A model generated the notes under the pieces. It made no database searches, had not been told where the DNA came from, and worked only from the letters and a program-made list of their open reading frames with translations. Source: Fidelibacterota bacterium (GTDB lineage Bacteria; Fidelibacterota; Marinisomatia; Marinisomatales; TCS55). From it: a stretch of 39,805 nucleotides of DNA. Position 1 is the first letter of the stretch, and every line of letters starts with the position of its first letter. The position numbers were made by a program, and so were the translations under genes. Below, piece by piece: positions 6,674 through 39,800 of this stretch. The stretch lies in NCBI GenBank assembly GCA_046861385.1, contig JBHHTW010000017.1, positions 1-39,805 of the forward strand. Direction: 5' to 3'.

Positions 6674-6682
6674 AGAGAGACG

Positions 6683-14410: not shown

Positions 14411-14418
14411 TATTCCTT

Positions 14419-18305: not shown

Positions 18306-21026
18306 CTATTTGATAATCCCGATTTTTAGGATTTTCGAATCAGACTCGCTGCCTTTGGTTGCTTTTACGTTCGCAAAATAAACACCGGACTCAATGCCAT
18401 CAATATTCCAAGTTGTTTCGTTAATTGATCCTTTTACAATGGTCGACATTTCAATTTTTTTTACAAAATTTCCTGCAAAATCGTAAATCATGATTTCCAC
18501 CTTTTCCGCTGATTCTACTGCAATACGTAATTTGACACTCCCATCATAAGCTGGATTGGGATAAGCGTACGTTTTATTTTTATTAAATAAGGACTCGTCT
18601 GGAATTCGTTTTGGAATATTCAAATGCAACGTACGTGTATTGCCAAAATCATGATGAGTAGACGTCCATTCATTGCCATAACTCTCGCTTGTTTCATCAA
18701 AAAGCCAAATGGCTGATGCAGTCACGATAGCGTTTCTACCATCATATTCACTCAAACATACAAGTTTACCATAATCAGTTAGTCGATATTCTATTTCACC
18801 CTTCCAGTTGATGATTACGATTTCATTATCCATATTTTGAACAACGATTTCTGGATGACCATCACCATATAAATTTTTTATTAATGCTGTTTGACTGTAT
18901 GGGAAATATTCTATAGGAAATCCTGTGGCAGTTATATCGAATCTTTTACCATATCTACATTCAAGTTTCCCAGTAGAATCAATAAATATTCTCTCACCAA
19001 TCCCATCTAAATCCATATCGGCAACTGACATAAACGAGCTAGTTTCAGCAGTCGTCATTCCGTCAGCATATTCAAAATAGGCTGATCTTTCAAAAAATAT
19101 TAAGGAAGGACCAAATAAAAATTTTGTGGAAAATAAATGGGTGTTATCTACAAACAATACTTTATTATCATAGATAACTGTGTCTTTCACAAGAGAAAAT
19201 GTTTGTTCACCCGTGTTCCATTTGAAAAAAGAAATTTTCGTAGAATCATCCAGAAGTTCATTAATGACTAATCGATCATTGGCATTTTCCAATATTTCAA
19301 TTGAAAAATCATAAACATCATTATTAGTAGAATAAAAGTATTGTTTATTCGTGACATCATTCTCAGCTACAACCCACAAACTATCTTTCCCGCCAACAAT
19401 TTCCATTATTCCATCATTATTAAAATCATGGATCAATCCTATATGTAAAGATGCATCAGGAAATCCATCAGCCAGCATCGCATTCGTGACGGAGAAGGAC
19501 ATCGTGTCACCGGGTAGACCGATATTACTAATATTCAAATATGTAGTTGCACCATCGTTACTTTTTGTATTGGGGTATGTAAATGGACCAAATTCTATCG
19601 GTTTACCTTTAAAATCCGGATAAAGACTTTCGTATTCGGGGTTGCCCTGGAACCACATATCACCAAAATAGCCGCCTGAAGGGTCTGCGAAGAGGAAAAT
19701 GTTTGGATAACCAATATCTTGCGCCCCATCGGCTTCTTCCAGGTCTATTCCGCGATTTTCACGGTTTCCATTTACTGAATATGAAGAAAGTCCTGAATTA
19801 ATGCGATTTTCATCGATATGCCAAATTAAAAGACCGGATGCAGGCAATCCCAAATCGTAAGACGGAATTGATGTAACGACACCATTTTCATCTATGTCTT
19901 CTCCACTTAAAACAGTATCGAATAATACTTCTACCAATGGAGGATATCGATCTCTTCCATTTTGTTCATACATTATATACCGAGAAGAATCAATAGATAC
20001 GCCTGTACGAAACCAGTTTGTTCGATTTTCGACTAAATAATATTCGTTGTCGTTAATATCAATCTGTACAATATTGTTTTCAGAACGGCTGGGTAAATTA
20101 ACATTTGATCCCGGTTTTACCATAACGGGTTCATCCCATCCTGCATAAGTTCTTGTCCATGCATTAGGCGGTGAAGGAATCAAACCGCGGCCGTTATTCG
20201 ATCCCTGGTCCATTAGACCAAATACTCCAATCCCACTTTGTCCAGATTCAGTATCCCATAATGGTGGAAGTCCGATTGCAAAACCGACCATAAGGGCGAA
20301 TGTCCCAGTTAAACCAAACTGATACTCACATGGAGTTTCGGAATCAGCAAACATTTGCTCTGCAATATCATAAAGAAGATGATTTTGTGTTTCGGGAATA
20401 ATAATTCCGTGTGAAACTGAGGAATTACCAATAGTTACGGACCCTCCATGAAAATTTGACAACATATCCTTATCAATATATGTAGATGGTATATCTTCCG
20501 GGGTCGGATCCAGAAACGGTAACGAAAAATCCTGACCGATTCCAGCATGTACAATGATCACTAAATCATCTTCAGAAAATTCCATTCCATCCACAGAATA
20601 TGCTTTCTCAATCGCTTCGACAAATAATTCAGTAATACGATTTTCGTGAAGCTCATCTTCTCCATAAGGATGGTAGTAATTCATCGTGTTGTCTAACAAA
20701 TAACTTCCCTCATTATCAGACGGGTAGATAACTGAATTCTCTATATCCAATCCAAATGTATTATAAGATACCGAACGGAAATAATTATCCAATGCTTTTA
20801 GTTGTGATTGAAAATATGATTGATCATGCGGCGCAGGGTCTATGGTATAAGTAGCGCAGGTATCGAACTCTGGCAAGTAGAGGAAATGACCATTTCCGGT
20901 AGTGCCGTCAACATTATCTTCAATAAAGGATACTCTGATTACTTTTAGTGTTATATCTCCAGTAATATCAGCTGATAGTGATGACCATATCATCAATATG
21001 ATGATGATTGAAAATCCATATTTCAT
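18306..21026 (-). CDS. M6 (InhA)-like protease homologue lacking zinc ligands, with FG-GAP-like repeats and T9SS-type C-terminal domain
   Basis: Signal peptide; IIVHAG, GLPxLWD, GLMDQG, YYLVENR, GLLIWHIDE and LEEADG; DxxxDG repeats; CTD YAYPNP...IYDFAG..V...SGVYF...KIGIIK. Confidence 0.75.
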   Translation of the reverse strand: MKYGFSIIIILMIWSSLSADITGDITLKVIRVSFIEDNVDGTTGNGHFLYLPEFDTCATYTIDPAPHDQSYFQSQLKALDNYFRSVSYNTFGLDIENSVIYPSDNEGSYLLDNTMNYYHPYGEDELHENRITELFVEAIEKAYSVDGMEFSEDDLVIIVHAGIGQDFSLPFLDPTPEDIPSTYIDKDMLSNFHGGSVTIGNSSVSHGIIIPETQNHLLYDIAEQMFADSETPCEYQFGLTGTFALMVGFAIGLPPLWDTESGQSGIGVFGLMDQGSNNGRGLIPSPPNAWTRTYAGWDEPVMVKPGSNVNLPSRSENNIVQIDINDNEYYLVENRTNWFRTGVSIDSSRYIMYEQNGRDRYPPLVEVLFDTVLSGEDIDENGVVTSIPSYDLGLPASGLLIWHIDENRINSGLSSYSVNGNRENRGIDLEEADGAQDIGYPNIFLFADPSGGYFGDMWFQGNPEYESLYPDFKGKPIEFGPFTYPNTKSNDGATTYLNISNIGLPGDTMSFSVTNAMLADGFPDASLHIGLIHDFNNDGIMEIVGGKDSLWVVAENDVTNKQYFYSTNNDVYDFSIEILENANDRLVINELLDDSTKISFFKWNTGEQTFSLVKDTVIYDNKVLFVDNTHLFSTKFLFGPSLIFFERSAYFEYADGMTTAETSSFMSVADMDLDGIGERIFIDSTGKLECRYGKRFDITATGFPIEYFPYSQTALIKNLYGDGHPEIVVQNMDNEIVIINWKGEIEYRLTDYGKLVCLSEYDGRNAIVTASAIWLFDETSESYGNEWTSTHHDFGNTRTLHLNIPKRIPDESLFNKNKTYAYPNPAYDGSVKLRIAVESAEKVEIMIYDFAGNFVKKIEMSTIVKGSINETTWNIDGIESGVYFANVKATKGSESDSKILKIGIIK

Positions 21027-21062
21027 ATATGTAATTTAGGATATTTAAGAATCAGAAACTTT

Positions 21063-22442
21063 TTAGAATTCCATATTCAGGGAAAACCGCATCGTATTTG
21101 ATAAAGGATGCTTTGGATTTCCTGATGTATACCCAAAATCAAATCCATAATTGGAAAAACGTAATCCAACACCAAAAGTAGGATTCATAATTTTTCCTGT
21201 CTTATCATAGAGATATCCTGCCCGAAGTGCAAAATATTGCCCATACCAGTATTCGACGCCAATATTATGGATAAGCTTATCAAGTTCATTCATAATGGAC
21301 CGTTGCTTTGCGCTCCCGACTTCTTTTTGACCGTATTCATTATATGAACCCCATCCGGATGAACCTGGATTACCTTCAGTGGGTATTATTTCACCTTCGT
21401 CAGTTTCAATTTTACCATTCCCGTAACCGGGACGATCAGGATCGCCATAAGTATCGTTCCAATCATATCCGCCAATAATATGATCATAATCATCATTTGA
21501 ACCATTCATGTCCATATCGCCGCCCAGTAACCAATCATCGATCCATGAAGTAAATATTCCAATATAAATTGGATCAGAATGCGCAGATTCTTGTTGACCA
21601 TCTTTATTGTAACTGGCATTTTTATCTGATTTATGACCGAATTCGTCAAAACCTCCAACATATCCATCTCCATCCCAATCCATATCAGGGTATGCCGCCA
21701 CAAGTAATTTATCTACGTCATAAACTAAGTTTATTTTATTATATTGTGAATTTACGATTGCAAAATTCAATCCGAGAGTAAAATTGGTCGGTTGCGGATC
21801 TGCCTGAGCAGGATCAATAAAAGATACCTTTGGCCCAATATTCGTCATCGTCATACCCATAGTTAACCTTGGAGTTAAGAATTCCTTATGCAAATATCCA
21901 ATATCAAAACCAAAATCTGTTGAAGTGCCCTTCCCCTTTTCTCCTCCGGCACCAAATTCGGTTAAATGTTGGTATGATATTTTTGCATTAATCCCTAGAG
22001 AAGATTTTGGTGTTAACAATGAACTATACGATAGTGATAATGCCATCATATAGCTGGTAAAAGTTCCCAGATAATCATCTGGTGTTTCACCCATTCTGAT
22101 TTGTTCACCAAGATTGAGATAAATAAGATGCCCCCCAACTGTACCCAAATAAGGGATATGTTTTCTATAGGCAAAAAATTCATAATACATATCGTTGGCA
22201 AGATTCGGTAACCAATTTACATGCATTAGCGCCATTTCTGAGCCTTTGAGGAATGCAAGTCCGGCAGGATTCCAAAATGTGGCATACGCATCGTCTGCGA
22301 CAGCGACCTGGGCCTCTCCCATTCCACCTGCACGCGCACCCGGGGAAATAAGCAGAAAAATAGCCCCAGCCTCACTTTGTGAGTAAATTGGTTTTGAAAG
22401 GATTAAAAAGGCCATGGCCACGACCATGAAAAATCGTTTCAT
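21063..22442 (-). CDS. porV: PorV/PorQ-family outer membrane barrel with acidic insertions
   Basis: FLLISPGARAGGMGE..VA.ADDA.A.FWNPA.LAF, HVNWLP.L..DMYY, NIGPK.S and the C-terminal PLSNTMRFSL. SD AGGAG at 22452-22456. Confidence 0.82.
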   Translation of the reverse strand: MKRFFMVVAMAFLILSKPIYSQSEAGAIFLLISPGARAGGMGEAQVAVADDAYATFWNPAGLAFLKGSEMALMHVNWLPNLANDMYYEFFAYRKHIPYLGTVGGHLIYLNLGEQIRMGETPDDYLGTFTSYMMALSLSYSSLLTPKSSLGINAKISYQHLTEFGAGGEKGKGTSTDFGFDIGYLHKEFLTPRLTMGMTMTNIGPKVSFIDPAQADPQPTNFTLGLNFAIVNSQYNKINLVYDVDKLLVAAYPDMDWDGDGYVGGFDEFGHKSDKNASYNKDGQQESAHSDPIYIGIFTSWIDDWLLGGDMDMNGSNDDYDHIIGGYDWNDTYGDPDRPGYGNGKIETDEGEIIPTEGNPGSSGWGSYNEYGQKEVGSAKQRSIMNELDKLIHNIGVEYWYGQYFALRAGYLYDKTGKIMNPTFGVGLRFSNYGFDFGYTSGNPKHPLSNTMRFSLNMEF

Positions 22443-26309: not shown

Positions 26310-27608
26310 CTAATTGACAAGATCACTATAGAGAGGAAATGATTTACATAATTCATTCACAGATTTCTTGACAGATTGAATGATTGATGTATCGTCAATA
26401 TTACTGATGATTTGATCAATCATGTTACAAATCAAAGTCATTTCATCCTCTTTCATACCCCGCGTTGTAATTGCCGGTGTACCAATTCGCATACCGCTGG
26501 TAATAAAAGGACTTCTTTCATCAAAGGGTATCATGTTTTTATTAACAGTTATTCCAGCTTTTTCCAAGGCTTTCTCTGCAGACTTTCCGGTAACTCCCTT
26601 GTTAGTTAAATCAATTAAGATCACATGGGTATCCGTGCCGCCTGAAATGAGATGATAATCTTTCTTAAGTAATTCTTCAGATAATTGCTTTGCATTCAAC
26701 ACAACTTGCTTCGAATACAGTTTGAATTCAGGTTTCAGTGCTTCGCCAAAGGCAACTGCTTTTGCAGCAATAATATGCATTAACGGACCTCCTTGAATAC
26801 CTGGCATTACCATTGAGTCGATCAATTCGGATGTGTTTTTAACACGACCCGATTTAGGAGCAACAATTCCAAAAGGGTTTTGTCCATCACGACCCATCAA
26901 AATCATACCACCACGGGGTCCTCGCAGTGTTTTGTGGGTGGTAGTCGTTACGACATCACAGTAGGGCATAGGAGATGGATGAAGCCCCGAGGCGACCAAT
27001 CCTGCCGGATGGGCTATATCTGCCATCAGAAACGCTCCAACTTCATCTGCGATATTCTTAAAATCTTCAAATTCAATAAACCTGGGATAGGCACTACCTC
27101 CACAAATAATCAATCTTGGTTTATACTCTTTGGCAATCTTCAGAAGATCATTAATATTTACACGTCCGGTTTCACGATCAACCCGGTAAGAGACACTATT
27201 AAATAATTTTCCGGAAAAATTGACTGCACTTCCGTGGGTGAGGTGACCACCATGGGCTAAATCCAATCCCATTATGGTTTCACCTGGTTTTACAAATGTT
27301 AGCAACGCAGCCATATTTGCCTGAGAACCTGAATGGGGCTGAACATTTGCATATTTGGCATCGAACAGCTCCTTAGCCCTATTCCGCGCAAGGTCTTCTG
27401 CTTTGTCTACATGCTCACAGCCTCCGTAATATCGTTTTCCGGGATAACCTTCAGCGTACTTATTCGTCATTACACCACCGGCCATTTCCAGAACAGGATA
27501 GCTTACGAAATTTTCAGACGCAATGAGTTCGAGAGTGGAAAATTCACGCTCAATTTCTTTATTAAGAATATCGAATAGATAAGGATCTGCATCTCTTAAA
27601 AAAGACAT
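26310..27608 (-). CDS. glyA: serine hydroxymethyltransferase
   Basis: [33 protein letters not shown] and [14 protein letters not shown]. Confidence 0.98.
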
Positions 27609-27630
27609 TAACAGTTACTCTTTTAGAGAA

Positions 27631-28896
27631 TTACCATTTAGGATTTTTTTGCAGCTTCTCTTGAATCCAGCTATAGCATTCCCCCCTCGGAATTACATAA
27701 CCTTGGTTTTTTATATCATCATCCAACATAAACCACTGAGCCCGGGTGAAAAGCACTTCATTTTCTAATAACCAAGTCCGGGAGCTTTTATAGCTTTGGC
27801 TATTTAATTCTTCAGCTTTATTGAAATTGTTAAATGCTAATGATGCTACCACTCTATCATCAAGGGAAATTGCCGGAGTTCTACAATCCTGGAATGATTT
27901 ATAATATACGTTTCCTTTCCTGCCATAAGAATCACCATTCATTTTATCCATTGAAATGACTTTATCGGCCCATCGGAGCGCTTTTGCGTAGTTTTGTCCT
28001 GCAGTATTAATATCACATATTTTTAATGCAACTTGAATATCACGTGGATTAAGCTTGAACAATTCCTCATAAGCATTCGAAGCATCATCTAATTCATCTG
28101 CTGCATAATATGCCTGACCTAATTTCCGATAGGCCAGTTTACTCGAATTATCCATTTTGAGAACTTTTTTCAATATTTCAACTGCTTCCTGTGGTTCATC
28201 ATTCAACAATAATCTATCGGCTAAATCGGTTCCAAAGGAAACATTATCAGAATTGGTTCTAAAACGTTCACGATACACATCCAGAGGATCCTTCCCAGTT
28301 AGTTCGTATACAATCGCAATGTCACTTTGCGCTTTTTCATTAGCTGGATCGATTTTTAGTATCCCTTCCAAAATATCGATTTGGTCATCATATAATTCTT
28401 GTTTACCATAAAGTTCTGCTAGATCCATTTTTACTTGTATATTTTCTGGAATCAATTCTGATAAACGATTTAAAGTTGTGATTTGTAAATCTGATTTATT
28501 TTGTATTGAGTAGGCATAAGACAACCGTTTGAGTAATTCAACATTATTTGGTAAAAGCTGCAGCCCTTTGACTAACACAAATTCAGAACTATCAAATTGC
28601 CCCAAATATTCATAAGCAATGGCATAATATTGGTACACTTCAACCGGATCGTCACGATCACAGCCTAAATCAACTAATTCACGATACACTCGAATGGTTG
28701 AAGCCCAATCCCTATTTTTATAATATTCAGCAGCGCTACTCATTAATCGCGGGCAACGAACATCACGCAATGAATCCAGATATGCATCGTAGGCGGCATC
28801 CTCGCTCACACCATTTTCTTCCGGAGGCACACACATGGAAAAAAATATTGATATAACGCCAATACTAATTATTTTTGAAAGTTGAAATTCCTTCAT
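27631..28896 (-). CDS. tetratricopeptide-repeat protein, probable lipoprotein
   Basis: Start MKEFQ at 28896 (AAGGA upstream), hydrophobic stretch ending FFSM-C, and many TPR-like helix pairs. Confidence 0.8.
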   Translation of the reverse strand: MKEFQLSKIISIGVISIFFSMCVPPEENGVSEDAAYDAYLDSLRDVRCPRLMSSAAEYYKNRDWASTIRVYRELVDLGCDRDDPVEVYQYYAIAYEYLGQFDSSEFVLVKGLQLLPNNVELLKRLSYAYSIQNKSDLQITTLNRLSELIPENIQVKMDLAELYGKQELYDDQIDILEGILKIDPANEKAQSDIAIVYELTGKDPLDVYRERFRTNSDNVSFGTDLADRLLLNDEPQEAVEILKKVLKMDNSSKLAYRKLGQAYYAADELDDASNAYEELFKLNPRDIQVALKICDINTAGQNYAKALRWADKVISMDKMNGDSYGRKGNVYYKSFQDCRTPAISLDDRVVASLAFNNFNKAEELNSQSYKSSRTWLLENEVLFTRAQWFMLDDDIKNQGYVIPRGECYSWIQEKLQKNPKW

Positions 28897-28906
28897 GTAT
28901 TTATCC

Positions 28907-30178
28907 TTATTTAGGGCGACGTTTAACGAACCAAAGATCGCCAATTTGAACGCCGAATGTTATTTGTTGAATTATTTCGTCTGATTTTACATCACCTGAT
29001 CTTAATCCATATTTATAGGCAAAATCTAATTGATTTTTTGCCCGTCCAAATTTAATACCAAACCCGACAGTTAAGCCAAATTCATTCACACTGGATGTAT
29101 TATTATATAAGTTATCGTGTCGAAAATATACACCACTCCTGTATTGAATTTTTTGAGATAATTTAAACGCATCATCTGATGAAAATTTTGCGAAACTTAT
29201 AGAGTATTGATTTGATTGATCAATATATAATGATTTCAATGAAAATAATTCATCTGATTTATTTCCATTATCTTTCCAGTGATAAAATTCTGCCATAATA
29301 TGGGATTTATTATTTTTTAATTTGAAATCCAGACCCGCTCCAAATTCGAATGGATTATAAATATTTTTAAAAATTGAGGATTCAGCATTTGGTACGCTAG
29401 ATGGATTTGGACTATCACTTGGTGGACTTGTATCAAAATATCCATTTTTATTTACATCTTCAAAAGGTTGAAATGAAAGGTGGTTCGCACGCAGAGATTT
29501 GATGGCACCCGATATCATTAAATAAATATTTGCCGGGATTTGTCCTTTATTGAAGCGATTTGAGGTCAGAAATAGTCTGTAAAGGGAGCCATCATATATG
29601 TGCCTCTGATAATAATGATAATCACGATCATTAATTCTTAATTTTGTGTCTTTTCTATAGGAACCGAAAAGGATATCTAATTCAATCGCTGCTCCTTCAT
29701 TAGCTGTTATTGGGAAACGTATAGCTGTATATAATGAAGAAACACCACCCGATCCATCTACAAAATGTTGTGTATTTAATGTATCACCATTAACAATAAA
29801 TTCGTCAGAAGATGAACCAATTAATGAAAGTTTGTGGCTAAATAAGGGTCTTACACCAAATCCCCAGGCATAATTGCTCCCAATTGAAACCGCAAATTGG
29901 AGGCTGTTAAAGTCAGTATGTCCATTTGTACCCAGATTACTTGATACTTCATTCCCAGAGATATTTCCAGCTAAATAAGCGAATTTTAAATGGTTCCATG
30001 TGACAGGATTCGATAAGGAAACATTTTCAGTAAACGAAGGAATAATACCGCGGCTACTCATAGATAAAGCTGATGCACTATGAGTAAATGACCTCTCACC
30101 TAATCCGTACCCACTATGAATGGATTGACCCAGCATAAAAGTTATCGTCAGGATTGCGAATAGTTTAGGGCGATACAT
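28907..30178 (-). CDS. FadL-like outer membrane beta-barrel (BamG-like)
   Basis: Signal peptide, then S..SGYGLG...M...G...NP (FadL-type N-terminus), alternating beta strands and the C-terminal GDLWFVKRR motif. Confidence 0.65.
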   Translation of the reverse strand: MYRPKLFAILTITFMLGQSIHSGYGLGERSFTHSASALSMSSRGIIPSFTENVSLSNPVTWNHLKFAYLAGNISGNEVSSNLGTNGHTDFNSLQFAVSIGSNYAWGFGVRPLFSHKLSLIGSSSDEFIVNGDTLNTQHFVDGSGGVSSLYTAIRFPITANEGAAIELDILFGSYRKDTKLRINDRDYHYYQRHIYDGSLYRLFLTSNRFNKGQIPANIYLMISGAIKSLRANHLSFQPFEDVNKNGYFDTSPPSDSPNPSSVPNAESSIFKNIYNPFEFGAGLDFKLKNNKSHIMAEFYHWKDNGNKSDELFSLKSLYIDQSNQYSISFAKFSSDDAFKLSQKIQYRSGVYFRHDNLYNNTSSVNEFGLTVGFGIKFGRAKNQLDFAYKYGLRSGDVKSDEIIQQITFGVQIGDLWFVKRRPK

Positions 30179-31430
30179 ATTGAATAAATAATTTTGGATA
30201 AAGAAGAGAATCTGCGTTTGAATAAAGGTGTACGGTCGAATGAATACTATTATTGACGCTTGAATACAATTTTATTCCCAGATTATCTATGTGATTAAAA
30301 TAATGATCCTGTAAAAATCGTTTTATGTTAAATACCACCTGATTATCAGAGACAGTACCACTAACGGTTAAATAGCTAAATGTATCAAAGAGATCCTCAT
30401 CAAAATATGTAAAGTTGGTAAGCTCAACAGTATCCTGAAGTGGAATGGCATATAATGTAAAAGAAGAAATAGTTGTATCCGGTACAATGTGAAATATGAG
30501 TTCAGCTTTATCAAATGTTGTTTGGTTTGGCAAAGCCAAAGTATCGAGAAAATTTAAAGAAATAAGGCTGCGCAACCCCTTTCCCCTGCTAATGGAAATA
30601 AATGAAGAGTCTTCATCAAGAATATCAGGTGGAACTAAAATACTTAAATCGCTGATAACTTTAAATGATCTTTGCAATGTATCAATTTGAGTATCCTGGG
30701 ATGTATCCGCAGAATCAGCATAAGTGAATTGTTTAAAATAAACATCAAGCTTTGGGGTCGTATTTTCCAAGGATGAATATTCACGGCTATAAACAGAATG
30801 CAAATTACCATCGTCATTATCCAAGGTGAGCATAACAGTATAATTAAGTGATGAATCCATAAAAGTAGAATCAAGCATATCGGATACGTTGAAACGCGCT
30901 CTAAAGACAGAATTTGCAACAGAATCAACCATGAATTCAGACTCTTCCTCAAGTGCAGATGCTTCATATTGTCCCAACGCAATTTCGGTTTCGGTGAAAT
31001 TTAAATAATGTGATTTAGATTCACTAAAGACGGAATCTCCTTGATCCGGGAATGAAAAGAGAGAAAATGAGATTGGATTAATTAATGTATCGGTTGTTAA
31101 ATATACAGTGAAAAATGCACTGTCAATTAAGATATTGGAATCTAATAACGATGCGTACGACAATTGTACAGATTCGGAGGATACAAATGAAGTTTTCAAC
31201 AAAATAGCCTTATATTCAAATTCTCCATCTACACCTAAAGATAGTCGTGTTTTACTACCGATTGAAGGTGGGATTTGATATGTTTCTCCCTCAATATCAT
31301 ATAAATGCAACGTATCTAATTCTAGATTTTCATTACTCAAATCAGCATGCAAGGGTTCTTCCATACAACCATTAATTGATATGAGGAACGTTCCTGTGAC
31401 CAAGACAGATGTTAGATACAATAGTTTCAT
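30165..31430 (-). CDS. acidic beta-rich lipoprotein, DUF4270/BamH-like
   Basis: Lipobox ING-C-MEE. Two internally similar halves (IDSAFFTV...YSRE....PKLDVYF and FDKAELIF...YS.....PKLFIQY). Position downstream of a half-GlgA gene. Confidence 0.55.
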   Translation of the reverse strand: MKLLYLTSVLVTGTFLISINGCMEEPLHADLSNENLELDTLHLYDIEGETYQIPPSIGSKTRLSLGVDGEFEYKAILLKTSFVSSESVQLSYASLLDSNILIDSAFFTVYLTTDTLINPISFSLFSFPDQGDSVFSESKSHYLNFTETEIALGQYEASALEEESEFMVDSVANSVFRARFNVSDMLDSTFMDSSLNYTVMLTLDNDDGNLHSVYSREYSSLENTTPKLDVYFKQFTYADSADTSQDTQIDTLQRSFKVISDLSILVPPDILDEDSSFISISRGKGLRSLISLNFLDTLALPNQTTFDKAELIFHIVPDTTISSFTLYAIPLQDTVELTNFTYFDEDLFDTFSYLTVSGTVSDNQVVFNIKRFLQDHYFNHIDNLGIKLYSSVNNSIHSTVHLYSNADSLLYPKLFIQYVSP

Positions 31431-31453
31431 GGAATTAGGGTATATACGAAAAA

Positions 31454-32281
31454 CTAACCGTTAAGTTTCTCAAGGATATTGTCGAGGTCATCTGCTACAG
31501 GTTGATAATCGATGACGTCTCCTTCAGGAACTTTAACAGTCTGAACTTTTTTCTTAACGGCATTTATTGCTGGAAGTGATAATAATTTTTCAGTCAAATG
31601 ATTAGATGGTGATTCTAAAGCAATAATCATGTCTGCATTTTCTGCGGCAGCTTCATAAGCGTTAACAGCACCGTTTTTCATGATAGATGGTATTTTAAGT
31701 CCAACTTTTTCAAATGAAGATTGTGAAAATGAATTGTATTCATCATCCATTTCATGAACCAATAAAACTGTTTTTATTTTAGCGTAAAAATCATCTCTTT
31801 GATATAGTTCTTTATATAATGCAGGGACAAACGAAGATTGCCAACCATTGCATAGAAAAATATCCGGTTTCCAGAATAAATGAGGTAATGTTGCCAACGT
31901 TGCCTTGCAGAAAATTGAGTATCGTTCATCGTTATCTGCTAAAATACGACCATTCTTAGATTTATATACCAGATTGGTTAAGGGTTTGAACCATTTTGTA
32001 TCTTCAAGAAAATAGACTTGAACCCTCGTTTTTGGAATGAAGGCACTTTTTGCAGATAAAATCATTTCATCTCCATCATATTCAAAAGGTATCTCCCGGA
32101 GACGAATCACTTCCCGCAAAATATATTTTCGTTCACTCACGTAACCATATTTGGGGATGATTGTCCTAATATCATGTCCTTTTCCCTGAAGAATGAGCGG
32201 GACTCTCGTGGAGAAAGGAGCCAAACTTGATGTATTTGCAAACGGAATGATTTCGGTGGTCATATAAAAGATTTTACTCAT
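31454..32281 (-). CDS. glycogen/starch synthase N-terminal (GT5) domain-only protein
   Basis: KIFYMTTEIIPF, GHDIRTIIPKYG, VQVYFL, DNDERY..F and WKPDI..CNGWQS; only 275 aa, with no C-terminal Rossmann domain. Confidence 0.85.
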   Translation of the reverse strand: MSKIFYMTTEIIPFANTSSLAPFSTRVPLILQGKGHDIRTIIPKYGYVSERKYILREVIRLREIPFEYDGDEMILSAKSAFIPKTRVQVYFLEDTKWFKPLTNLVYKSKNGRILADNDERYSIFCKATLATLPHLFWKPDIFLCNGWQSSFVPALYKELYQRDDFYAKIKTVLLVHEMDDEYNSFSQSSFEKVGLKIPSIMKNGAVNAYEAAAENADMIIALESPSNHLTEKLLSLPAINAVKKKVQTVKVPEGDVIDYQPVADDLDNILEKLNG

Positions 32282-32296
32282 AAAACTGAACTTTTC

Positions 32297-33103
32297 TTAT
32301 TCGATGGTTAATTGTTTAAGTGTTTTTTCTGCACGGTCATAAAATTCACTGCCGGGAAAATAATCAACAAGTCTTTGAAATTCCTCTTTTGCTTTTTCCA
32401 AATTCCCCATACTTTGATACGCCAAACCTAGTTTTAATTGGGCATCATCATCTTTGTCAGTACCTGAAAACGTAAATACTTTTTCGAATTCGACGATTGC
32501 ACGCTTATAATTTTTTTGTGAATAGTAGCATTCTGCCAACCAATATTGACTATTATCCGCTAAATCGTTTTGTGGGTCACTTATGACTAATTTTGAAAAA
32601 CCTGAAATCGCTCGGGTGTAATCACTATTTTGGTAATTACTCAAACTCTCAATATATATTCTTTTATATTCAGCCGGATTGATTCTGGAACTGGGCGATG
32701 CTGGTGTCTGGTCTTTTCTAATATTATATAGTTCCGTAAAACTATTCGCGAGAGTCACAATTTTATTTTCAATCATCACGAGTTGAGCCAATACTTCAAA
32801 ATTTGTACTATCAGAATAGGCAGCTTTATCTTCTAATAACCGAATTTTATTTTGAATTGTATTAATTCGATTAATAATCATTATAGCAACAGAATCCGTT
32901 TGCTTTTTTGATGCCACAGTTGCTTTCAACGTCGATTGAATTTCTGGTAAAAGGATATTTAACTTTGTTTCCAACTCATCAATTCGAACACGCTGATTTT
33001 CAATTTTGGTATTAATAATTTTGGTTTGTTTCTCACTTTGAGAAAATAGTAATACCGGTATAGATATCAGCAGGATAAATGTATGTGAGATTTTCTTAAT
33101 CAT
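32297..33103 (-). CDS. cpoB: CpoB/YbgF-like periplasmic coiled-coil + TPR protein
   Basis: Signal peptide, coiled coil, then LADNSQYWLAECYY...DAQLKLG...LVDYFPGS. Confidence 0.8.
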   Translation of the reverse strand: MIKKISHTFILLISIPVLLFSQSEKQTKIINTKIENQRVRIDELETKLNILLPEIQSTLKATVASKKQTDSVAIMIINRINTIQNKIRLLEDKAAYSDSTNFEVLAQLVMIENKIVTLANSFTELYNIRKDQTPASPSSRINPAEYKRIYIESLSNYQNSDYTRAISGFSKLVISDPQNDLADNSQYWLAECYYSQKNYKRAIVEFEKVFTFSGTDKDDDAQLKLGLAYQSMGNLEKAKEEFQRLVDYFPGSEFYDRAEKTLKQLTIE

Positions 33104-33175
33104 ATATTTTTGCCGTTTTTCTTTAAAAAGAAGGATGGGAATTTATCAAGACTTCATCAAGTATCATCGTAATTT

Positions 33176-34408
33176 TTAATATTCTTTGGGATCGATACTT
33201 AAATTCATTATCAATCCAATCATAATAAAACTTGAAAGCAAAAATGATCCTCCGTATGACACAAACGGTAATGGAAGACCCTTTACTGGAATCATACCAA
33301 CCGTCATAGCAAAATTTACAAAAACATGGGCCGTAAAAATTGATGCAATGCCAACAATTGTTAAACTGGAAAACCGGTCATCGATGTTATAAGCCAAACG
33401 AATGGTTTTAAGAATGAACAAAGTAAATATAGTTATGAGAATGAATATGGCTATAAAACCAAATTCCTCTCCTATCACCGATACAATAAAATCTGATTCT
33501 TGCACCGGTAAAAATTTAAGATGAGTTTGCGTCCCCTGCCCCCAACCTTTCCCAAACAAACCTCCTGCTCCAATGGCCGTTTTGCTTTGAATAATTTGAT
33601 ATGCAGCCCCCAGCGGATCAAGTTCCGGATTAAATAGTGTCAGGATTCTTTTTTGCTGATAATCCTTTAACGTTCCCCATAATACGGGTGATAATAACCC
33701 TAAAAAGACGTTAGAAAAGAATGTGGAAATGCCGAATAATATTGTTGGTTGAGCTCTATAAATAATTATCATCATAGACACTGCCCAGATAGTAAATGAC
33801 AACCAATGAAATGCAGTTAAAATACTAATTAAGGGGGCTAAAAAAAGGAAAAGATGAAACGGGCGAGACCCTGCCCAATATAGCATTGGTAATACGGGAA
33901 CCATAATAATAATAGCTGTTCCCAGATCGGGTTGATTAAGAATGATGAATGCCGGTAATAATGCGATCAAGACTGGAAAAATATTTGCAGAAAAGTATGT
34001 CATTTGCAAATTATGATCTGACAAGTATCGGGCTAAAGCGATGACAACAATCCACTTTGCGAATTCAGAAGGTTGAAAGCCCACAGGAAGACCTAAATCG
34101 ATCCAACGATACGTATGAGCAATTTCTCTTCCGAAATATGGAATCAATATAAAAATCATAATAATACCAAATAAACTGTAAATATAACGATGGATAGTAT
34201 GACGAGGTATCATGAACGCTATTAATAACCCCATTATTGCTGGAATTATAAATATAAGCTGTTTATAAAACGATTGATGAATAAAGGGCAATGATTGACC
34301 AGATTCAATACTTTTAAGCGTCATTAAACCAATTGCGAAAAGAATTAATGCCAGAATAAAAAGGGTAAAATTTGACGACCTGAATTTCAGCAGTATTAAT
34401 TTAATCAT
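33176..34408 (-). CDS. rodA: rod shape-determining SEDS glycosyltransferase RodA
   Basis: RWIDLG, QPSEFAK, QPDLGT, YQIIQSKTAIG.GG, DFI.SVIGEEFG and PLPFVSYGGS. Confidence 0.96.
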   Translation of the reverse strand: MIKLILLKFRSSNFTLFILALILFAIGLMTLKSIESGQSLPFIHQSFYKQLIFIIPAIMGLLIAFMIPRHTIHRYIYSLFGIIMIFILIPYFGREIAHTYRWIDLGLPVGFQPSEFAKWIVVIALARYLSDHNLQMTYFSANIFPVLIALLPAFIILNQPDLGTAIIIMVPVLPMLYWAGSRPFHLFLFLAPLISILTAFHWLSFTIWAVSMMIIIYRAQPTILFGISTFFSNVFLGLLSPVLWGTLKDYQQKRILTLFNPELDPLGAAYQIIQSKTAIGAGGLFGKGWGQGTQTHLKFLPVQESDFIVSVIGEEFGFIAIFILITIFTLFILKTIRLAYNIDDRFSSLTIVGIASIFTAHVFVNFAMTVGMIPVKGLPLPFVSYGGSFLLSSFIMIGLIMNLSIDPKEY

Positions 34409-36180
34409 TGTGAAAATGCGAGTCTAATTGATTCATTTGAAGAAAACAATAGCTCAAAAACAGATCTAGCAATCGGTGCGGCTGTTTCGCCACCATGTCC
34501 ACCCTGTTCAACCAGAATCACAACCGAAGCAATGTCGTTCTGATTTTTTGCATACCCGATATACCATGCATGATCGTCACCATGTGGATTTTGTGCAGTA
34601 CCTGTTTTTCCAGCCACAATTACTCCCGGGATTTTTGGATTTGACCGCTTACCAGTTCCTCGTGGTGAATTGATTACCTTTTGCATATAGAAGTCAATTT
34701 TATCCCATGTATTTTTTGAAAATGTTGATATTTCAACTTTCTTCGATTTACGATTCTTTAGCATATGAAGTCCACGCGTATGCCCTTTTGTCGCTAGTAA
34801 ATTTATATACTGGAGCATTTGGATAGGCGTCGCTACTAATTCTCCCTGCCCCAATGAAATATTTAACAAATGCCCTTTTGACCATCCCCAGCGTCCATAG
34901 TGTTTCGTTAGAAATGAAGATGTTGGTACGATACCTCTTGCTTCAGAGTACAAATCAATTCCTGTTTTACTCCCAAAACCAAATAATCGACACGACTCTG
35001 CCCATTCATCAATGGATAATCGCTGCACAACGTCGTAAAAATAAATATTGCATGATTGCGCTATGGCTTCCTCGAGATTAACAGGCCCGTGACCGTCTTC
35101 TTTCCAGCAGCGAAAATCACGATTACCTAAAGTGTATACTCCTTTACAATCAACTGTTTCTGAAAAGTTGACTTTCCTTTTTTCTAAAAGACTCATGACT
35201 GTAATCATTTTCAATGTGGAACCGGGCGGATATAAACCATGCGTAATACGGTTTAATAACGGTTTTTCAGGATCACTGATAATTTTTTTCCATTTATCAA
35301 CGGAAGTTTTTCCTGTGAATAAATTAGCCGGGTAATCTGGCTTACTAACAAATGCTAATATTTCTCCCGTTCTTGGATTCGATACCAAAGCGATACCCTT
35401 ATGACCCTCCAATTTCTCTTCTAACATTTCTTGTAAGGGTAACATAATGGATGTTAATAAATTATTCCCCGGAACTGGGTATTGAGCCTCTCTGTCAGTT
35501 GATATTCCAATTTCACGACCAAATGCATCTACCTCTATAAAATATACACCCTTTTTTCCACGTAAATTATTCTCGTATACTTTCTCTAATCCTCTCCAGC
35601 CAACTAAGTCACCAAACACATATTGATCTGGATCCGGTAATTCATTTATAAGAGCATGATCAACCTCTTTCACATAACCGAGCAAATGTGATGCATTGAT
35701 TTTATTTGAATAAGTTCTTTCAGGAAATTGTGTATAGTTTATTCCTGCCAAGTCTGTTTTATGTTCTTCTATCCGACTTAGTTGATCAAACGTGAGATCT
35801 TTTGCAATTCTTGATGGTAAAAATTTTCCCCGATAGTATTTCTTATAATTTGTTTTTAAAACAACCGTATCAATACCTGTACATTCACTGACTATTTTAA
35901 AAATTTGGCTTTCATCACCCATTTCTCCTGGGATACCGGTTAAGACATATGTTGGATAATTATCGACGATGATAGTTCCGTTTCTATCAGTAATTAATCC
36001 TCGAGGAGCATTTAATGAAATGGCTCGAATCCGGTTCACATCAGCTTTCATTGAATATTTTTCATATGAGTATACCTGGATGTTAAAAAACCTCGTAAGG
36101 AGAGACATCATTAATAGAATGACGATGCTGCTTGAGACAATCATTCGTCTCTTGGGTATTTTATTAGCCGCTTTCAGCAC
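34405..36180 (-). CDS. mrdA: penicillin-binding protein 2
   Basis: N-terminal TM, APRGLITDRNG, STLK (SxxK), SCN and KTGT. Confidence 0.96.
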   Translation of the reverse strand: MLKAANKIPKRRMIVSSSIVILLMMSLLTRFFNIQVYSYEKYSMKADVNRIRAISLNAPRGLITDRNGTIIVDNYPTYVLTGIPGEMGDESQIFKIVSECTGIDTVVLKTNYKKYYRGKFLPSRIAKDLTFDQLSRIEEHKTDLAGINYTQFPERTYSNKINASHLLGYVKEVDHALINELPDPDQYVFGDLVGWRGLEKVYENNLRGKKGVYFIEVDAFGREIGISTDREAQYPVPGNNLLTSIMLPLQEMLEEKLEGHKGIALVSNPRTGEILAFVSKPDYPANLFTGKTSVDKWKKIISDPEKPLLNRITHGLYPPGSTLKMITVMSLLEKRKVNFSETVDCKGVYTLGNRDFRCWKEDGHGPVNLEEAIAQSCNIYFYDVVQRLSIDEWAESCRLFGFGSKTGIDLYSEARGIVPTSSFLTKHYGRWGWSKGHLLNISLGQGELVATPIQMLQYINLLATKGHTRGLHMLKNRKSKKVEISTFSKNTWDKIDFYMQKVINSPRGTGKRSNPKIPGVIVAGKTGTAQNPHGDDHAWYIGYAKNQNDIASVVILVEQGGHGGETAAPIARSVFELLFSSNESIRLAFSQ

Positions 36181-36655
36181 GATATAGTAAACTAAACGGA
36201 ATGATTAATTGAAGGACAAGGATAAAACCCATCGTGTATCCGGTCGTGAAAAACCATGTTTGAATAAACATTAATTTGTCAGTCTCGTATAAATATTGAT
36301 ATCGAATATAGCAATATGTTAAAAAATGAAATGCCATAATTCCAATCCATGATAAATGATAATACAATGGAATTAACCGGTTGTATTGATCCTTTAATAA
36401 ACCGGATATATAACCGATGATTGAATAGGATAATGAAGAAAGTCCAAAATAAGAACCAACAGCCGAAAGATCTGTTAATAACCCAAGCAGAAAACCAGCT
36501 ATAACGCCATAAAACCGTCCGTATTTGATTGCGATATACAGGACGAATATTGACATGAAATCAGGACGTATCATATTAATTGACATCATTTCAGCTAAAT
36601 AAAACTGAATGATGAATACAATAAATAAAATCGTAATGAATTTACTCCACTTCAT
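36164..36655 (-). CDS. mreD: rod shape-determining protein MreD
   Basis: Hydrophobic protein with IRPDF and GFLLGLLTDL, located between mreC and mrdA. Confidence 0.9.
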   Translation of the reverse strand: MKWSKFITILFIVFIIQFYLAEMMSINMIRPDFMSIFVLYIAIKYGRFYGVIAGFLLGLLTDLSAVGSYFGLSSLSYSIIGYISGLLKDQYNRLIPLYYHLSWIGIMAFHFLTYCYIRYQYLYETDKLMFIQTWFFTTGYTMGFILVLQLIIPFSLLYRAESG

Positions 36656-37442
36656 TATTTTGCCCTGTAATGATAAATAGATTTATTAATGAACCCAGTT
36701 GCACCGGGTATCGAACAGACACAATTTTTTGAAAACTACCGATTTCATTCCGGATACCGATTACTTCACCGACAGGAAGATTTTTGGGGAAAATATCACT
36801 AAATCCCGATGTAATGACTTGATCCCCAATCTTTACTTCTGAATTTTTTTGAATTTCTCTAATTTCACATAAATCACCATACACCCATCTTAAAATACCC
36901 CTGGCGCCTGACGGCATGACCTGCACACTTAAGCGAAAATTTACATCGTTCAATATTTGAACGACTGAGCTTTGATTTCCAACAACAATAGTCTTTCCAA
37001 CCACTCCCTTCGGTGTAATTACGGACATATTTTTTTTAATACCATGCTGATTCCCGACATCGATTGTCAAAGTGTTCATATTGGATGTGATCCCTTTATT
37101 AATCACTTTGGCAGGAAGTAATTGCAACTGGCTCTCCCGTTTATAATTCAGCATTTCGCGCAACCGTTGATTTTCAATTGCCAGATTTCGCATAGATTCA
37201 AGTTGTAGAGAATAAATAACATTTTCTTCCCTGATTAGAGCGGCTTCTTCATCAACAACAGCCATTGCCCTGAGCCATGACACCGGTTTGTAGATGGATG
37301 TTAATAAATCATTTGCTTTACCGCGAAATATGGCAACATCTGTGGAATCATTGGATAATATTAATGAAAAAGATATGACGATAGCGAAGAGAAATACAAG
37401 GTGATCGCGCTGACGTATTAAAGAAAGGTAAAACTTCCTCAT
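36642..37442 (-). CDS. mreC: rod shape-determining protein MreC
   Basis: TM plus coiled coil (ENQRLREML), then GDQVITSG...FPKNLPVG. Confidence 0.95.
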   Translation of the reverse strand: MRKFYLSLIRQRDHLVFLFAIVISFSLILSNDSTDVAIFRGKANDLLTSIYKPVSWLRAMAVVDEEAALIREENVIYSLQLESMRNLAIENQRLREMLNYKRESQLQLLPAKVINKGITSNMNTLTIDVGNQHGIKKNMSVITPKGVVGKTIVVGNQSSVVQILNDVNFRLSVQVMPSGARGILRWVYGDLCEIREIQKNSEVKIGDQVITSGFSDIFPKNLPVGEVIGIRNEIGSFQKIVSVRYPVQLGSLINLFIITGQNNEVE

Positions 37443-37524
37443 GTCGATTTAAGGGTCGTTATTTTGATCGGTTGGGTGGATGAAATAAGAGACAATCAGA
37501 CATTCCAACATTTACCAAATCATA

Positions 37525-38553
37525 TCAGATTAGGACCGGTCTGTATTTACGGATATTTTCCAGCACCTTACCTGTTCCTTTCACCACTGAAATCAAAGGT
37601 TCCTCTGCAGTATTTACAGGTACATTTGTACGCTCACGAATAATCTGGTCCATCCCTTTTAGTAAACTGCCGCCTCCTGTCATTATAATTCCTCTGTCCA
37701 ATATATCAGCCGCTAATTCTGGTGGGGTTCTTTCCAAAGCTCGTTTGACCGCTTCCACGATACTATTGACCGGATCTTTTAGTGCTTGTCGTATTTCATC
37801 GGATGACACCTCGATTGTCTTTGGAATACCGCTGACCATGTCACGTCCTTTGACCGAGATGGTTTCTGTTGTCATTCGCATTGCTGAACCAACAGAAATT
37901 TTTATCGCCTCACCTGTTGCAAGACCAATATCTAATTTATGTTCGTTTCGAAACCACATGACCACATGTTCGTCCATTTCATCGCCGGCAATTCGAATTG
38001 TTTCTTTCGTCACAACGCCATTTAAAGCAATGACGGCTATTTCAGTCGTGCCTCCACCAATATCAACAATAATATTTCCTATGGGCTGACCAATGTCAAG
38101 ACCAATACCAATCGCGGCAGCTACCGGCTCTTCAATTAAATATACTTCTCGAGCGTTCGCCCGTTCCCCTGAGTCTTTTACTGCCCGCCGTTCGACTTCT
38201 GTAACCCCTGAAGGAACACAGATCACCATTCTTGGCCGCGCCAAACGATTGATATTTATTTTTCGAATGAAACCCTGAAGCATGCCGTCTGTCATATCAA
38301 AATCAGCGATAACACCATCTTGAAGTGGTCGTATAGTTTCAAGCTCTCGATGGGTTCTCCCAAGCATTGCTTTTGCTTCATTTCCGACTGCGACTATTTT
38401 ACCGTCATGCACTGATCTCGCAATAATTGACGGTTCGTTAATCATAACCCCTTTACCATTCACCCATAAAAGTGTATTTGCGGTACCAAGATCGATAGCA
38501 ATATCGCCTGATACCCAGGAAAAGGAATTTAATAAAGTGGATAAAAATGCCAT
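37525..38553 (-). CDS. mreB: rod shape-determining protein MreB
   Basis: IAIDLGTANT, IRPLQDGVIADF, VDIGGGTTE and LTGGG-like MTGGGSLL. Confidence 0.98.
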   Translation of the reverse strand: MAFLSTLLNSFSWVSGDIAIDLGTANTLLWVNGKGVMINEPSIIARSVHDGKIVAVGNEAKAMLGRTHRELETIRPLQDGVIADFDMTDGMLQGFIRKININRLARPRMVICVPSGVTEVERRAVKDSGERANAREVYLIEEPVAAAIGIGLDIGQPIGNIIVDIGGGTTEIAVIALNGVVTKETIRIAGDEMDEHVVMWFRNEHKLDIGLATGEAIKISVGSAMRMTTETISVKGRDMVSGIPKTIEVSSDEIRQALKDPVNSIVEAVKRALERTPPELAADILDRGIIMTGGGSLLKGMDQIIRERTNVPVNTAEEPLISVVKGTGKVLENIRKYRPVLI

Positions 38554-38735
38554 TTCTTATTTCTCGGATTATTTTTTGTTTCTTAAAGAAGTTGTAAAGT
38601 TAACTCAATTCAATGCTATTTTCCTTATGAATTAACTCATTTTAAAGGTTAAAATGATGCGTAGTTACTACGTAGATGCCTTAATCTGTATCGCTGCTAA
38701 AGAAGAATAAACATCGTATTAGTTAAAGCTTTGGT

Positions 38736-39800
38736 TTAATCGATTTCGACTCTGCTTTGATCTCCAAGTATAAAACGATGTGTGGTCGGTTTAGATTTAG
38801 ACCTTAATAATTGTACATCGCTGCCTAATAGTGACGCTTCTATCCTTCTGGAAATGTCCTGAATGCTGCAATCGTCCATCAGAATTGAATACTCAATCTC
38901 GCTATTTTCTATATTACATCCATTTCCTATCGCTGTGTACGGTCCAACATAGGCACCATGGATCCTCACATTATCTCCAATAATAACAGGACCTCGGATA
39001 TTTGAATCAATAATTTCAGAATTTTTTCCAATGATAACTCTTCCGGAAACATTTGAAAATGAATCAATATTCCCCAACCGATTATCTTTAATATTATCGA
39101 GTACGAGTCGATTGGCTTCCAAAAGATCCGACGGTTTACCCGTATCTTTCCACCACCCGGTTATCTCTGAATATGTCACAGAATATCCCTTTTCCAATAA
39201 ATATTGGTGGGCATCCGATATTTCCAATTCTCCCCGTTCTGATGGCTTAATATTATTCACAGCTTCAAAGATGTGGCTATCATAAACATAAATGCCGGTA
39301 ACGGCTAAATTACTTTTTGGCTTTGCTGGTTTTTCCTCAATACCAATAATATTTCCATCTTTTACATCGGCCACACCAAATCTATTTGGATCAGGAACTT
39401 TGCTCAATACAAGATGGCAATTAGAGCCGTTCGATTGAAATTTATCTACAAAATTGGTAATACCTCCTACAAGAATATTATCTCCCAAATAAAACACAAA
39501 TGGATCGCTTCCAATGAATGGTTCAGCTATTTTTACAACATGTCCCAAACCTAAAGGTGCCGACTGCTCTATATAAGTTATATTTAAACCATAATCATTT
39601 CCATTGCCAAATGCGTTTTCAATTGAAGTATCGTTTTCATTAATAATAACACCCACTTCATCAATCCCTGCACCATGAGCGTATTCCAAAGCATACTCCA
39701 GCATCAGTTTGTTTGCAATGGGTATGAGGTGTTTATTTTGTGTATGTGTTATGGGCCGCAACCTTGTCCCATGACCCCCGGCTGTAATCAGTGCCTTCAT
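38736..39800 (-). CDS. glucose-1-phosphate thymidylyltransferase, long form with C-terminal left-handed beta-helix
   Basis: AGGHGTRLRPIT...KHL.PIANK, YLGDN, EEKP, PSERGELEISDA, GWWKDTG and hexapeptide repeats. Confidence 0.93.
   Translation of the reverse strand: MKALITAGGHGTRLRPITHTQNKHLIPIANKLMLEYALEYAHGAGIDEVGVIINENDTSIENAFGNGNDYGLNITYIEQSAPLGLGHVVKIAEPFIGSDPFVFYLGDNILVGGITNFVDKFQSNGSNCHLVLSKVPDPNRFGVADVKDGNIIGIEEKPAKPKSNLAVTGIYVYDSHIFEAVNNIKPSERGELEISDAHQYLLEKGYSVTYSEITGWWKDTGKPSDLLEANRLVLDNIKDNRLGNIDSFSNVSGRVIIGKNSEIIDSNIRGPVIIGDNVRIHGAYVGPYTAIGNGCNIENSEIEYSILMDDCSIQDISRRIEASLLGSDVQLLRSKSKPTTHRFILGDQSRVEID

Follow-up and report, generated by a model that had tools for sequence, protein, structure and literature searches.

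The closest described systems to the locus reported here are the β-barrel assembly machineries (BAM) of Bacteroidota, for which BamG and BamH have been published as subunits (PMC12611786, PMC12578637). Both are essential core subunits in Flavobacterium johnsoniae and are reported to be conserved in six of seven other phyla of the Fibrobacteres-Chlorobi-Bacteroidetes (FCB) group. Our reference complexes are those of F. johnsoniae (BamG/BamH Fjoh_1412/Fjoh_0823; PDB 9N2D), Bacteroides thetaiotaomicron (BT_4367/BT_4306; PDB 9HIS, 9HIV and 9HJ3) and Porphyromonas gingivalis (PG_0448/PG_1835; PDB 9HJM); the codes 9HIV, 9N2D and 9HJM are those in the data-availability sections of the BAM papers. Supplementary Table 1 of Liu et al. 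lists no Marinimicrobia. Here we describe four adjacent genes in a stretch of 39,805 nucleotides (the window) from a Fidelibacterota bacterium (assembly GCA_046861385.1, contig JBHHTW010000017.1, positions 1 to 39,805 of the forward strand). They encode a short GlgA-like protein, a 421-aa lipoprotein, a 423-aa outer-membrane barrel and a tetratricopeptide repeat (TPR) lipoprotein. An earlier reading of the DNA (the original prediction) had proposed them as an extended BAM module with BamG and BamH as BAM subunits, in agreement with the two papers cited above. We conclude that the 421-aa lipoprotein and the 423-aa barrel are very probably the BamH and BamG of the Marinimicrobia (Fidelibacterota / Marinisomatota), as extra core subunits of an FCB-type BAM.

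A BamG-type barrel beside a lipoprotein of predicted BamH fold

The barrel is described as a BamG-family, 14-strand outer-membrane barrel of the FadL fold with the C-terminus WFVKRRPK. It matched the NCBIfam BamG model NF053685 with an E value of 2.4e-27 (96 bits), residues 18-421 aligning with positions 6-397 of the 397-position profile, and matched no Pfam family at E <= 1, Toluene_X and PorV included. A phmmer search of the PDB returned a sole match, chain 9n2d_B ('Bam G'), in an alignment that takes in the N-terminal segment and the C-terminal D-x-W-F-V-K tail. We also searched the PDB with a profile built from 39 orthologues of the phylum. It matched the BamG chains end to end: 9hiv_F of BtBAM at E 1e-60, 9n2d_B of BAMFj at 2e-51 and 9hjm_F of PgBAM at 1.2e-45. 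TodX followed at 2e-07 and CymD and TbuX at about 1e-05 (to 2e-05), each over partial length, and PorV had 0.01 in an alignment of about 70 residues; E. coli FadL was not among the matches at E <= 1. Adding one Bacteroidota-type row to the profile left this ranking unchanged.

For comparisons among loci we counted 40, namely 40 fetched loci minus L031, which is a DUF4270 locus, plus the window. The N-terminal segment of the barrel is conserved across orthologues, and WF occurs within the last 12 residues in 38/40, followed by two to five basic residues. The window barrel is homologous to Bacteroidota BamG over its full length, including this segment and the WF-x-K tail. The gene is single-copy in the source genome, where the next match in a profile search had an E value of 0.0067. 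By these comparisons the barrel is a BamG homologue, closer in sequence to the barrels of BAM complexes than to FadL/TodX transporters or PorV. The original prediction had called it FadL-type and BamG-like, with a WFVKRR tail, and had named clustering with true FadL transporters as a result that would speak against it; the BamG chains stand far ahead of TodX, and no such clustering was found.

Two other functions for the pair were weighed at this point. As a FadL/TodX-type uptake unit for hydrophobic compounds, the barrel and lipoprotein would account for the FadL fold family and for the weak profile matches to TodX, CymD and TbuX. We regard this as very unlikely, since the BamG chain matches about 40 orders of magnitude better than TodX and over the full length, Toluene_X gives no match, the N-terminal segment aligns with that of BamG, and the WF-x-K tail is conserved; moreover, nearly every genome of the phylum has the gene, the source genome has a single copy, and its partner has a predicted BamH fold. 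Less likely still in our estimation, and barely credible, is a PorV-like type IX secretion system (T9SS) shuttle with a cargo or accessory lipoprotein. PorV likewise has the FadL fold, and the genome has a T9SS, with SprA and, in the window, PorV and a protein bearing a C-terminal sorting domain. However, that PorV is encoded by a distinct gene (Table 1), the barrel lacks a PorV match in Pfam, and the weak, short match of its family profile to PorV also disfavours this function.

The second member of the pair, the 421-aa lipoprotein, has a signal peptide that ends in INGC, placing the lipobox cysteine at residue 22, and continues with M-E-E (read by eye), as expected from the acidic lipoprotein with C-MEE described originally. 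A script located a lipobox cysteine in 39/40 BamH-like proteins, 36 of these 39 having D or E at positions +2 to +4; the one protein it missed was the window's own, which reads C-M-E-E. The family comprises 73 representative clusters at E <= 1e-3, of which 51 members were aligned. Searched against the PDB, the family profile returned no BamH, giving only spurious matches to β-propeller designs, and the DUF4270 model (PF14092) matched neither the 421-aa protein at E <= 1 nor anything else in the genome.

An AlphaFold2 model from the 51-row alignment, with a predicted local distance difference test score (pLDDT) of 87.6 and a predicted template modelling score of 0.80, gave a different result from these sequence searches. 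Foldseek placed chains 9n2d_C, 9his_G and 9hjm_G as its top three matches, with E values from 9.3e-15 (9n2d_C) to 3.7e-10. In VIA-align the same chains covered model residues 17-421: 9n2d_C with Z 17.8 (root mean square deviation 7.0 Å, 361 aligned residues), 9hjm_G with Z 17.1 (6.6 Å, 340 residues) and 9his_G with Z 15.2 (6.9 Å, 362 residues). The fourth match was a carbohydrate-binding module (CBM) that binds chondroitin sulfate, 8wab, at Z 14.9; this is the fold that Liu et al. give for BamH. Chain 9hjm_G is named 'DUF4270 domain-containing protein', and the Silale preprint describes Bt4306 (BamH) as DUF4270. Chain 9n2d_C, whose name was not seen, was taken as BamH from its entry, size and fold. 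The 421-aa protein is thus modelled with the BamH fold, an elongated two-domain β protein with a CBM-like end. Of the DUF4270/BamH-like identity first proposed for it, the BamH part is upheld by the predicted fold and the DUF4270 part finds no Pfam match in the sequence.

Several properties set the window lipoprotein beside its described counterparts. It shares with Bacteroidota BamH the two-domain β-sandwich (CBM-like) fold, as modelled, and the acidic stretch past the lipid-anchor cysteine; unlike Bacteroidota BamH, it has no detectable DUF4270 sequence similarity. Its 421 aa fall about 100 residues short of the F. johnsoniae and B. thetaiotaomicron chains (517 and 520) and come near the P. 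gingivalis chain (439-462). A size close to this is reported for BamH2, some 100 residues below that of BamH. The adjacency of the lipoprotein and barrel genes also resembles the operonic BamG2-BamH2 pairs (BT_1785/BT_1786 and Fjoh_1686/Fjoh_1685), of which BamH2-BamG2 is described as a putative operon in B. thetaiotaomicron. In the published work, however, BamG2 and BamH2 were non-essential and their expression was not detected, whereas the window pair is the only one in its genome and therefore cannot be a spare copy.

In six loci from certain families of the phylum (L012, L013, L014, L015, L034 and L042) the BamH-like gene encodes 731-975 aa, about twice the usual length, and only the ends match the 421-aa profile, which suggests a large insertion or a duplicated domain.

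The source genome (an assembly of 2.43 Mb in 104 contigs, 97.85% complete) resembles Bacteroidota BAM hosts in having BamA, BamD, a SusC-type barrel and SprA. Profile searches of the genome found BamA at 452 bits, above the cut-off, one SusC/RagA protein above its cut-off, and SprA. The presence of BamA, SusC and SprA fits the correlation of BamGH with complex outer-membrane proteins described by Liu et al. The solved complexes of F. johnsoniae, B. thetaiotaomicron and P. gingivalis suggest a mechanism by analogy: the BamG barrel would pack against the back of BamA, and its extracellular strands would grip the lipidated N-terminal end of the BamH-like protein. The latter may then arch as a canopy over the BamA seam and could aid the folding of outer-membrane proteins with large external parts, for which the SusC-type barrel and SprA are candidate clients in this genome. 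On this assignment a Bacteroidota-type BAM would extend to the Marinimicrobia (SAR406), an abundant ocean phylum. It would also mean that BamH can diverge until the DUF4270 model no longer detects it, with the predicted fold and the place beside bamG retained, and that sequence surveys therefore undercount BamH.

Gene order within the phylum and across FCB phyla

To define how far the locus is kept, we used a sample of 121 genomes of the phylum that includes the source genome. Homologues were labelled Candidatus Marinimicrobia, Neomarinimicrobiota or Fidelibacterota. The BamG model matched in 119/121 genomes, above the cut-off in one, and short GlgA likewise had matches in 119/121. The 421-aa family profile matched in 55/121, and in 53 of these 55 the gene lies directly upstream of BamG, the two exceptions being on other contigs. 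Of 116 genomes, 104 have short GlgA on the same strand as BamG and upstream of it, at a spacing of 1.2-1.6 kb in 97 and 2.2-3.0 kb in seven; in the other 12 the two are on different contigs or the partner was not listed. The order short GlgA / X / BamG / TPR was found in 40/40 loci across the phylum; its absence from relatives had been named originally as a result against the proposal. Where gene X was missed by the 421-aa profile, it is still homologous to the 421-aa family (hhalign probability 96.5-99.5%).

The context of the four genes is mostly kept as well. A CpoB-like gene lies directly upstream of short GlgA in 33/40 loci, and mreD-mrdA-rodA upstream and rpiB-glyA-nrdR downstream are retained in most. 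In the two loci of family f18 (L020 and L041), a PHP-domain gene replaces the CpoB-like gene and short GlgA stays with the cassette.

DUF4270 matched in one of the 121 genomes, at a different locus. This is L031 (G085:C29:130191-142595), which carries a second module on the minus strand, with genes at 7496-8560, 6212-7492 and 4986-6215. The module encodes a Kelch β-propeller protein of 354 aa, a DUF4270 protein (E 6.6e-29) and a BamG that reaches 314.7 bits, over the cut-off, with a cyclophilin gene nearby; this composition recalls the propeller (BamI) and peptidyl-prolyl isomerase subunits of the Bacteroides BAM. The module could be the product of horizontal transfer or of a mis-binned contig. 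A search of metagenome contigs with its Bacteroidota-type BamG as a single protein found no relatives.

Outside this phylum, gene order could be read from published locus tags. In F. johnsoniae, B. thetaiotaomicron and P. gingivalis, among others, the BamG and BamH tags are separated, unlike the adjacent genes of the window. However, Supplementary Table 1 of Liu et al. gives consecutive bamG-bamH tags in all six non-Bacteroidota FCB phyla for which it lists both genes. Consecutive tags are found for Gracilimonas, Ignavibacterium (IALB_1455/1454), Salinibacter (SRU_0789/0790), Fibrobacter (FSU_1156/1157), Gemmatimonas (GAU_1453/1452), Caldithrix (Cabys_4206/4207) and Chitinophaga. The adjacency of bamH and bamG outside Bacteroidia is thus already implicit in the published table. 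Because the tags are consecutive in these phyla, the contiguous form is more likely ancestral than merged, and the idea that two Bacteroidota loci were joined in this lineage probably has the direction wrong. We infer that the ancestral FCB order was probably the contiguous one, later broken up in Bacteroidia and Flavobacteriia.

The published tags also bear on the flanking genes of the separated loci. BT_4307, annotated as a 'potential glycogen synthase' (PMC10797578), adjoins the BamH gene BT_4306; BT_4305 is a predicted GH57 protein (PMC13634575). Liu et al. expressed bamH from the fjoh_0824 promoter, which would fit an operon in which bamH (Fjoh_0823) follows Fjoh_0824. In P. gingivalis PG0448 (BamG) is followed by PG0449, a 441-aa TPR protein (PMC1887533, Table 2). 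These tags (BT_4307/BT_4306 and PG0448/PG0449) back the Bacteroidota neighbourhoods that the original prediction had described, with a GlgA-like gene beside bamH and a TPR gene beside bamG. Literature searches for neighbouring tags found none for bamG or bamH in Salinibacter, Ignavibacterium and Fibrobacter, and only BT_4307 and BT_4305 for bamH in F. johnsoniae, B. thetaiotaomicron and P. gingivalis.

The assignment of the pair as BamG and BamH in a BAM module has to be set against several results. The 96 bits of the barrel lie far under the NF053685 equivalog cut-off of 250, and the barrel is therefore a distant homologue and not an NCBI-defined equivalog. DUF4270 matched in 0/51 aligned members of the 421-aa family at E <= 0.1, and an hhalign comparison of the family with one genuine DUF4270 protein, that of L031, gave an E value of 0.056. 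In the absence of a DUF4270 sequence match, the BamH identity therefore draws on the predicted fold and the gene position. Synteny within the phylum is weak evidence of function, because the unrelated rpiB, glyA, nrdR and rodA are also kept. The adjacency across phyla is taken from published locus tags, and BT_4307 and PG0449 are putative counterparts of the short GlgA and the TPR protein. Association of the pair with BamA in this phylum is proposed from genes and models, by analogy with the solved complexes, and the short GlgA, lacking a signal peptide, could not reach a complex of the outer membrane.

The short GlgA and the TPR lipoprotein

The short GlgA matched Pfam PF08323, the GT5 N-domain, with an E value of 2.7e-39 over profile positions 1-215 of 239, as had been read from the sequence originally. 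It matched the NCBIfam starch/glycogen synthase models only over the first ~220 of ~480-490 positions. Compared with GlgA (CAZy GT5), the N-terminal Rossmann-like domain is clearly homologous, but the entire C-terminal domain and the KxGGL motif are missing. This motif has a role in ADP-glucose binding in glycogen synthase. The sequence PF(S/A)KVGGLGDV is present in 3/3 full-length paralogues from other genomes of the phylum, whereas 16/16 aligned short GlgA proteins have neither the motif lysine nor the Gly-Gly and stop about 210 residues sooner. A function as glycogen synthase was rejected on the loss of the motif and of the whole C-terminal catalytic domain. Among the cassette proteins, short GlgA is nonetheless the best conserved: the 16 sequences share 23 invariant columns, and ERKYILREVIRL is one of their motifs. 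Judged from these residues, it is a conserved cytoplasmic pseudoenzyme, predicted to be catalytically dead. A profile search of genome contigs found 529 relatives, and the best 80 of these 529 loci are all labelled Marinimicrobia, Neomarinimicrobiota, Fidelibacterota or 'uncultured bacterium'; Protein Atlas clusters for short GlgA are from Fidelibacterota only.

Its lack of a signal peptide rules short GlgA out as a physical subunit of any complex in the outer membrane, and so excludes the half-GlgA as a BAM partner in that sense. The gene shares its location, and probably its transcript, with bamH; to give it a role in regulation or as a scaffold would be only a guess.

The TPR protein matched Pfam TPR families (TPR_14 at E 3.4e-17) and has a cysteine after its signal peptide, followed by V-P-P, in agreement with its first description as a TPR lipoprotein. 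Its AlphaFold2 model (pLDDT 92.2) is an all-helical superhelix of about nine repeats, closed by a small C-terminal cap that contains Cys. Fold and profile searches of the PDB with this protein returned only generic TPR superhelices (consensus TPRs and OGT). It was rejected as a BamD, reaching 15.5 bits (E 0.0093) in TIGR03302 against a cut-off of 81.4; the BamD of the window is a separate gene (Table 1).

Acidic residues after the cysteine are the lipoprotein export signal of Bacteroidota. The TPR proteins have a cysteine after the signal peptide in 40/40 loci, mostly followed by x-P-P, and D or E at +2 to +4 in 0/40. The contrast with the BamH-like proteins agrees with a BamH-like protein exposed at the surface and a TPR lipoprotein facing the periplasm, the latter being the most likely location of the TPR protein. 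A complex prediction of BamG with the TPR lipoprotein scored 0.00 against a mark of 0.32, a result that counts neither way on binding. From its gene position, the protein is a candidate loose accessory of BamG or BAM that would face the periplasm.

The nearest described protein is PG0449. Like PG0449, the window TPR protein is encoded beside bamG, is of similar size (422 and 441 aa), contains TPRs and is extracytoplasmic. Generic HemY/BepA-type TPR matches are common to both. PG_0449 is reported to be essential by transposon mutagenesis and to be an extracytoplasmic Q-rule protein (PMC10653852). Unlike PG_0449, in which cleavage by signal peptidase I leaves an N-terminal glutamine, the window protein has a lipobox cysteine.

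Whether the flanking genes share in assembly is less certain than the identity of the pair. It is an even call, in our judgement, that only bamH and bamG belong together, with short GlgA and the TPR gene as neighbours in a frozen housekeeping array and no role in assembly. The conserved array also holds genes unrelated to BAM (mreD, mrdA and rodA upstream; rpiB, glyA and nrdR downstream), short GlgA is cytoplasmic, and neither protein is named as a component of the purified BAM complexes in the published descriptions consulted. However, when the upstream context switches to a PHP-domain gene in family f18, short GlgA is still with the BamH-like gene, and no cassette protein is better conserved. 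Moreover, in Bacteroidota with bamH and bamG apart, the glycogen-synthase-like BT_4307 lies by BT_4306 and the similar-sized, reportedly essential TPR protein PG0449 by PG0448.

A broader proposal, which we put forward tentatively and consider unlikely, is that the four genes form an ancestral FCB cassette for the extra BAM half, of which each half kept its flanking gene after the split. The TPR protein, as the counterpart of the essential PG_0449, would then be a loosely bound periplasmic BamG accessory, and the dead GlgA might serve bamH expression or couple envelope growth to carbon status. Throughout the Marinimicrobia, a predicted dead glycogen-synthase remnant keeps to bamH and a TPR protein to bamG; by published tags, each of these pairings also occurs in one or more Bacteroidota species in which bamH and bamG lie apart.

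The surrounding array and other features of the window

The ORF listing with its translations gives four real, tightly packed minus-strand ORFs in 27631..32281 (Table 1). The short GlgA and BamH-like genes are separated by 23 nt, and the BamH-like and barrel genes overlap by 14 nt. The TPR ORF has two possible starts, of which the ATG version, 7 nt from the barrel gene, opens with the signal peptide; the TTG start would overlap the barrel gene by 38 nt. These coordinates agree with the close coupling described originally, with gaps of up to 23 nt and one overlap. The description as a single operon holds for the coupling but not for the limits. The CpoB-like gene ends 15 nt upstream of the short GlgA gene, with rodA 72 nt above it, and glyA lies 22 nt downstream of the TPR gene; the window has 35 listed ORFs of 150 aa or more, every one of them on the minus strand. 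Because tight packing continues on both sides, the four genes are a coupled stretch of a long co-directional array and not a delimited operon. A promoter/terminator consensus scan gave a site number not above that of shuffled sequence.

Table 1. Positions of the features of the window discussed in the text
Feature	Positions	Strand	Length	Remarks
Short GlgA-like ORF	31454..32281	-	275 aa	
BamH-like lipoprotein ORF	30165..31430	-	421 aa	
BamG-family barrel ORF	28907..30178	-	423 aa	
TPR lipoprotein ORF	27631..28899	-	422 aa	from ATG at 28899
TPR lipoprotein ORF, alternative TTG start	28944..27631	-	437 aa	
CpoB/YbgF-like TPR protein	32297..33103	-	268 aa	upstream of short GlgA gene
BamD (YfiO family)	13670..14425	-		PF13525 YfiO, E 1.4e-21, profile 4-198 of 203
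PorV	21063..22442	-		Pfam PorV PF19572, E 3.9e-28
PorV and T9SS sorting-domain protein genes	18306..22442	-		sorting-domain protein of 906 aa
Window part of the mreB-to-glyA array	26310..39800	-		
Two adjacent ORFs	4952..7438	-	573 and 251 aa	no Pfam family at E <= 1e-5
DUF5683-like protein	14419..15342	-	307 aa	weak DUF5683 match, E 1.3e-06

The CpoB/YbgF-like protein matched NCBIfam TIGR02795 (tol_pal_ybgF) with an E value of 2.6e-21 and 76.4 bits, below the cut-off of 90.1. In the window and in loci L003-L042, the array mreB-mreC-mreD-mrdA-rodA-cpoB-like-glgA(short)-bamH-like-bamG-TPR-(rpiB)-glyA-(nrdR) is kept almost phylum-wide. The window's own array is without rpiB and nrdR, and TRAP-transporter genes come after glyA.

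Elsewhere in the window, the PorV gene lies directly upstream of that for a 906-aa protein whose C-terminal sorting domain is of the T9SS type; next comes a 985-aa PD40/peptidase-MA-like protein. Two further adjacent ORFs, of 573 and 251 aa, belong to no Pfam family at the threshold given in Table 1. Lastly, the gene for the 307-aa DUF5683-like protein shares a few bases with the start of BamD, and its product may be co-expressed with BamD.

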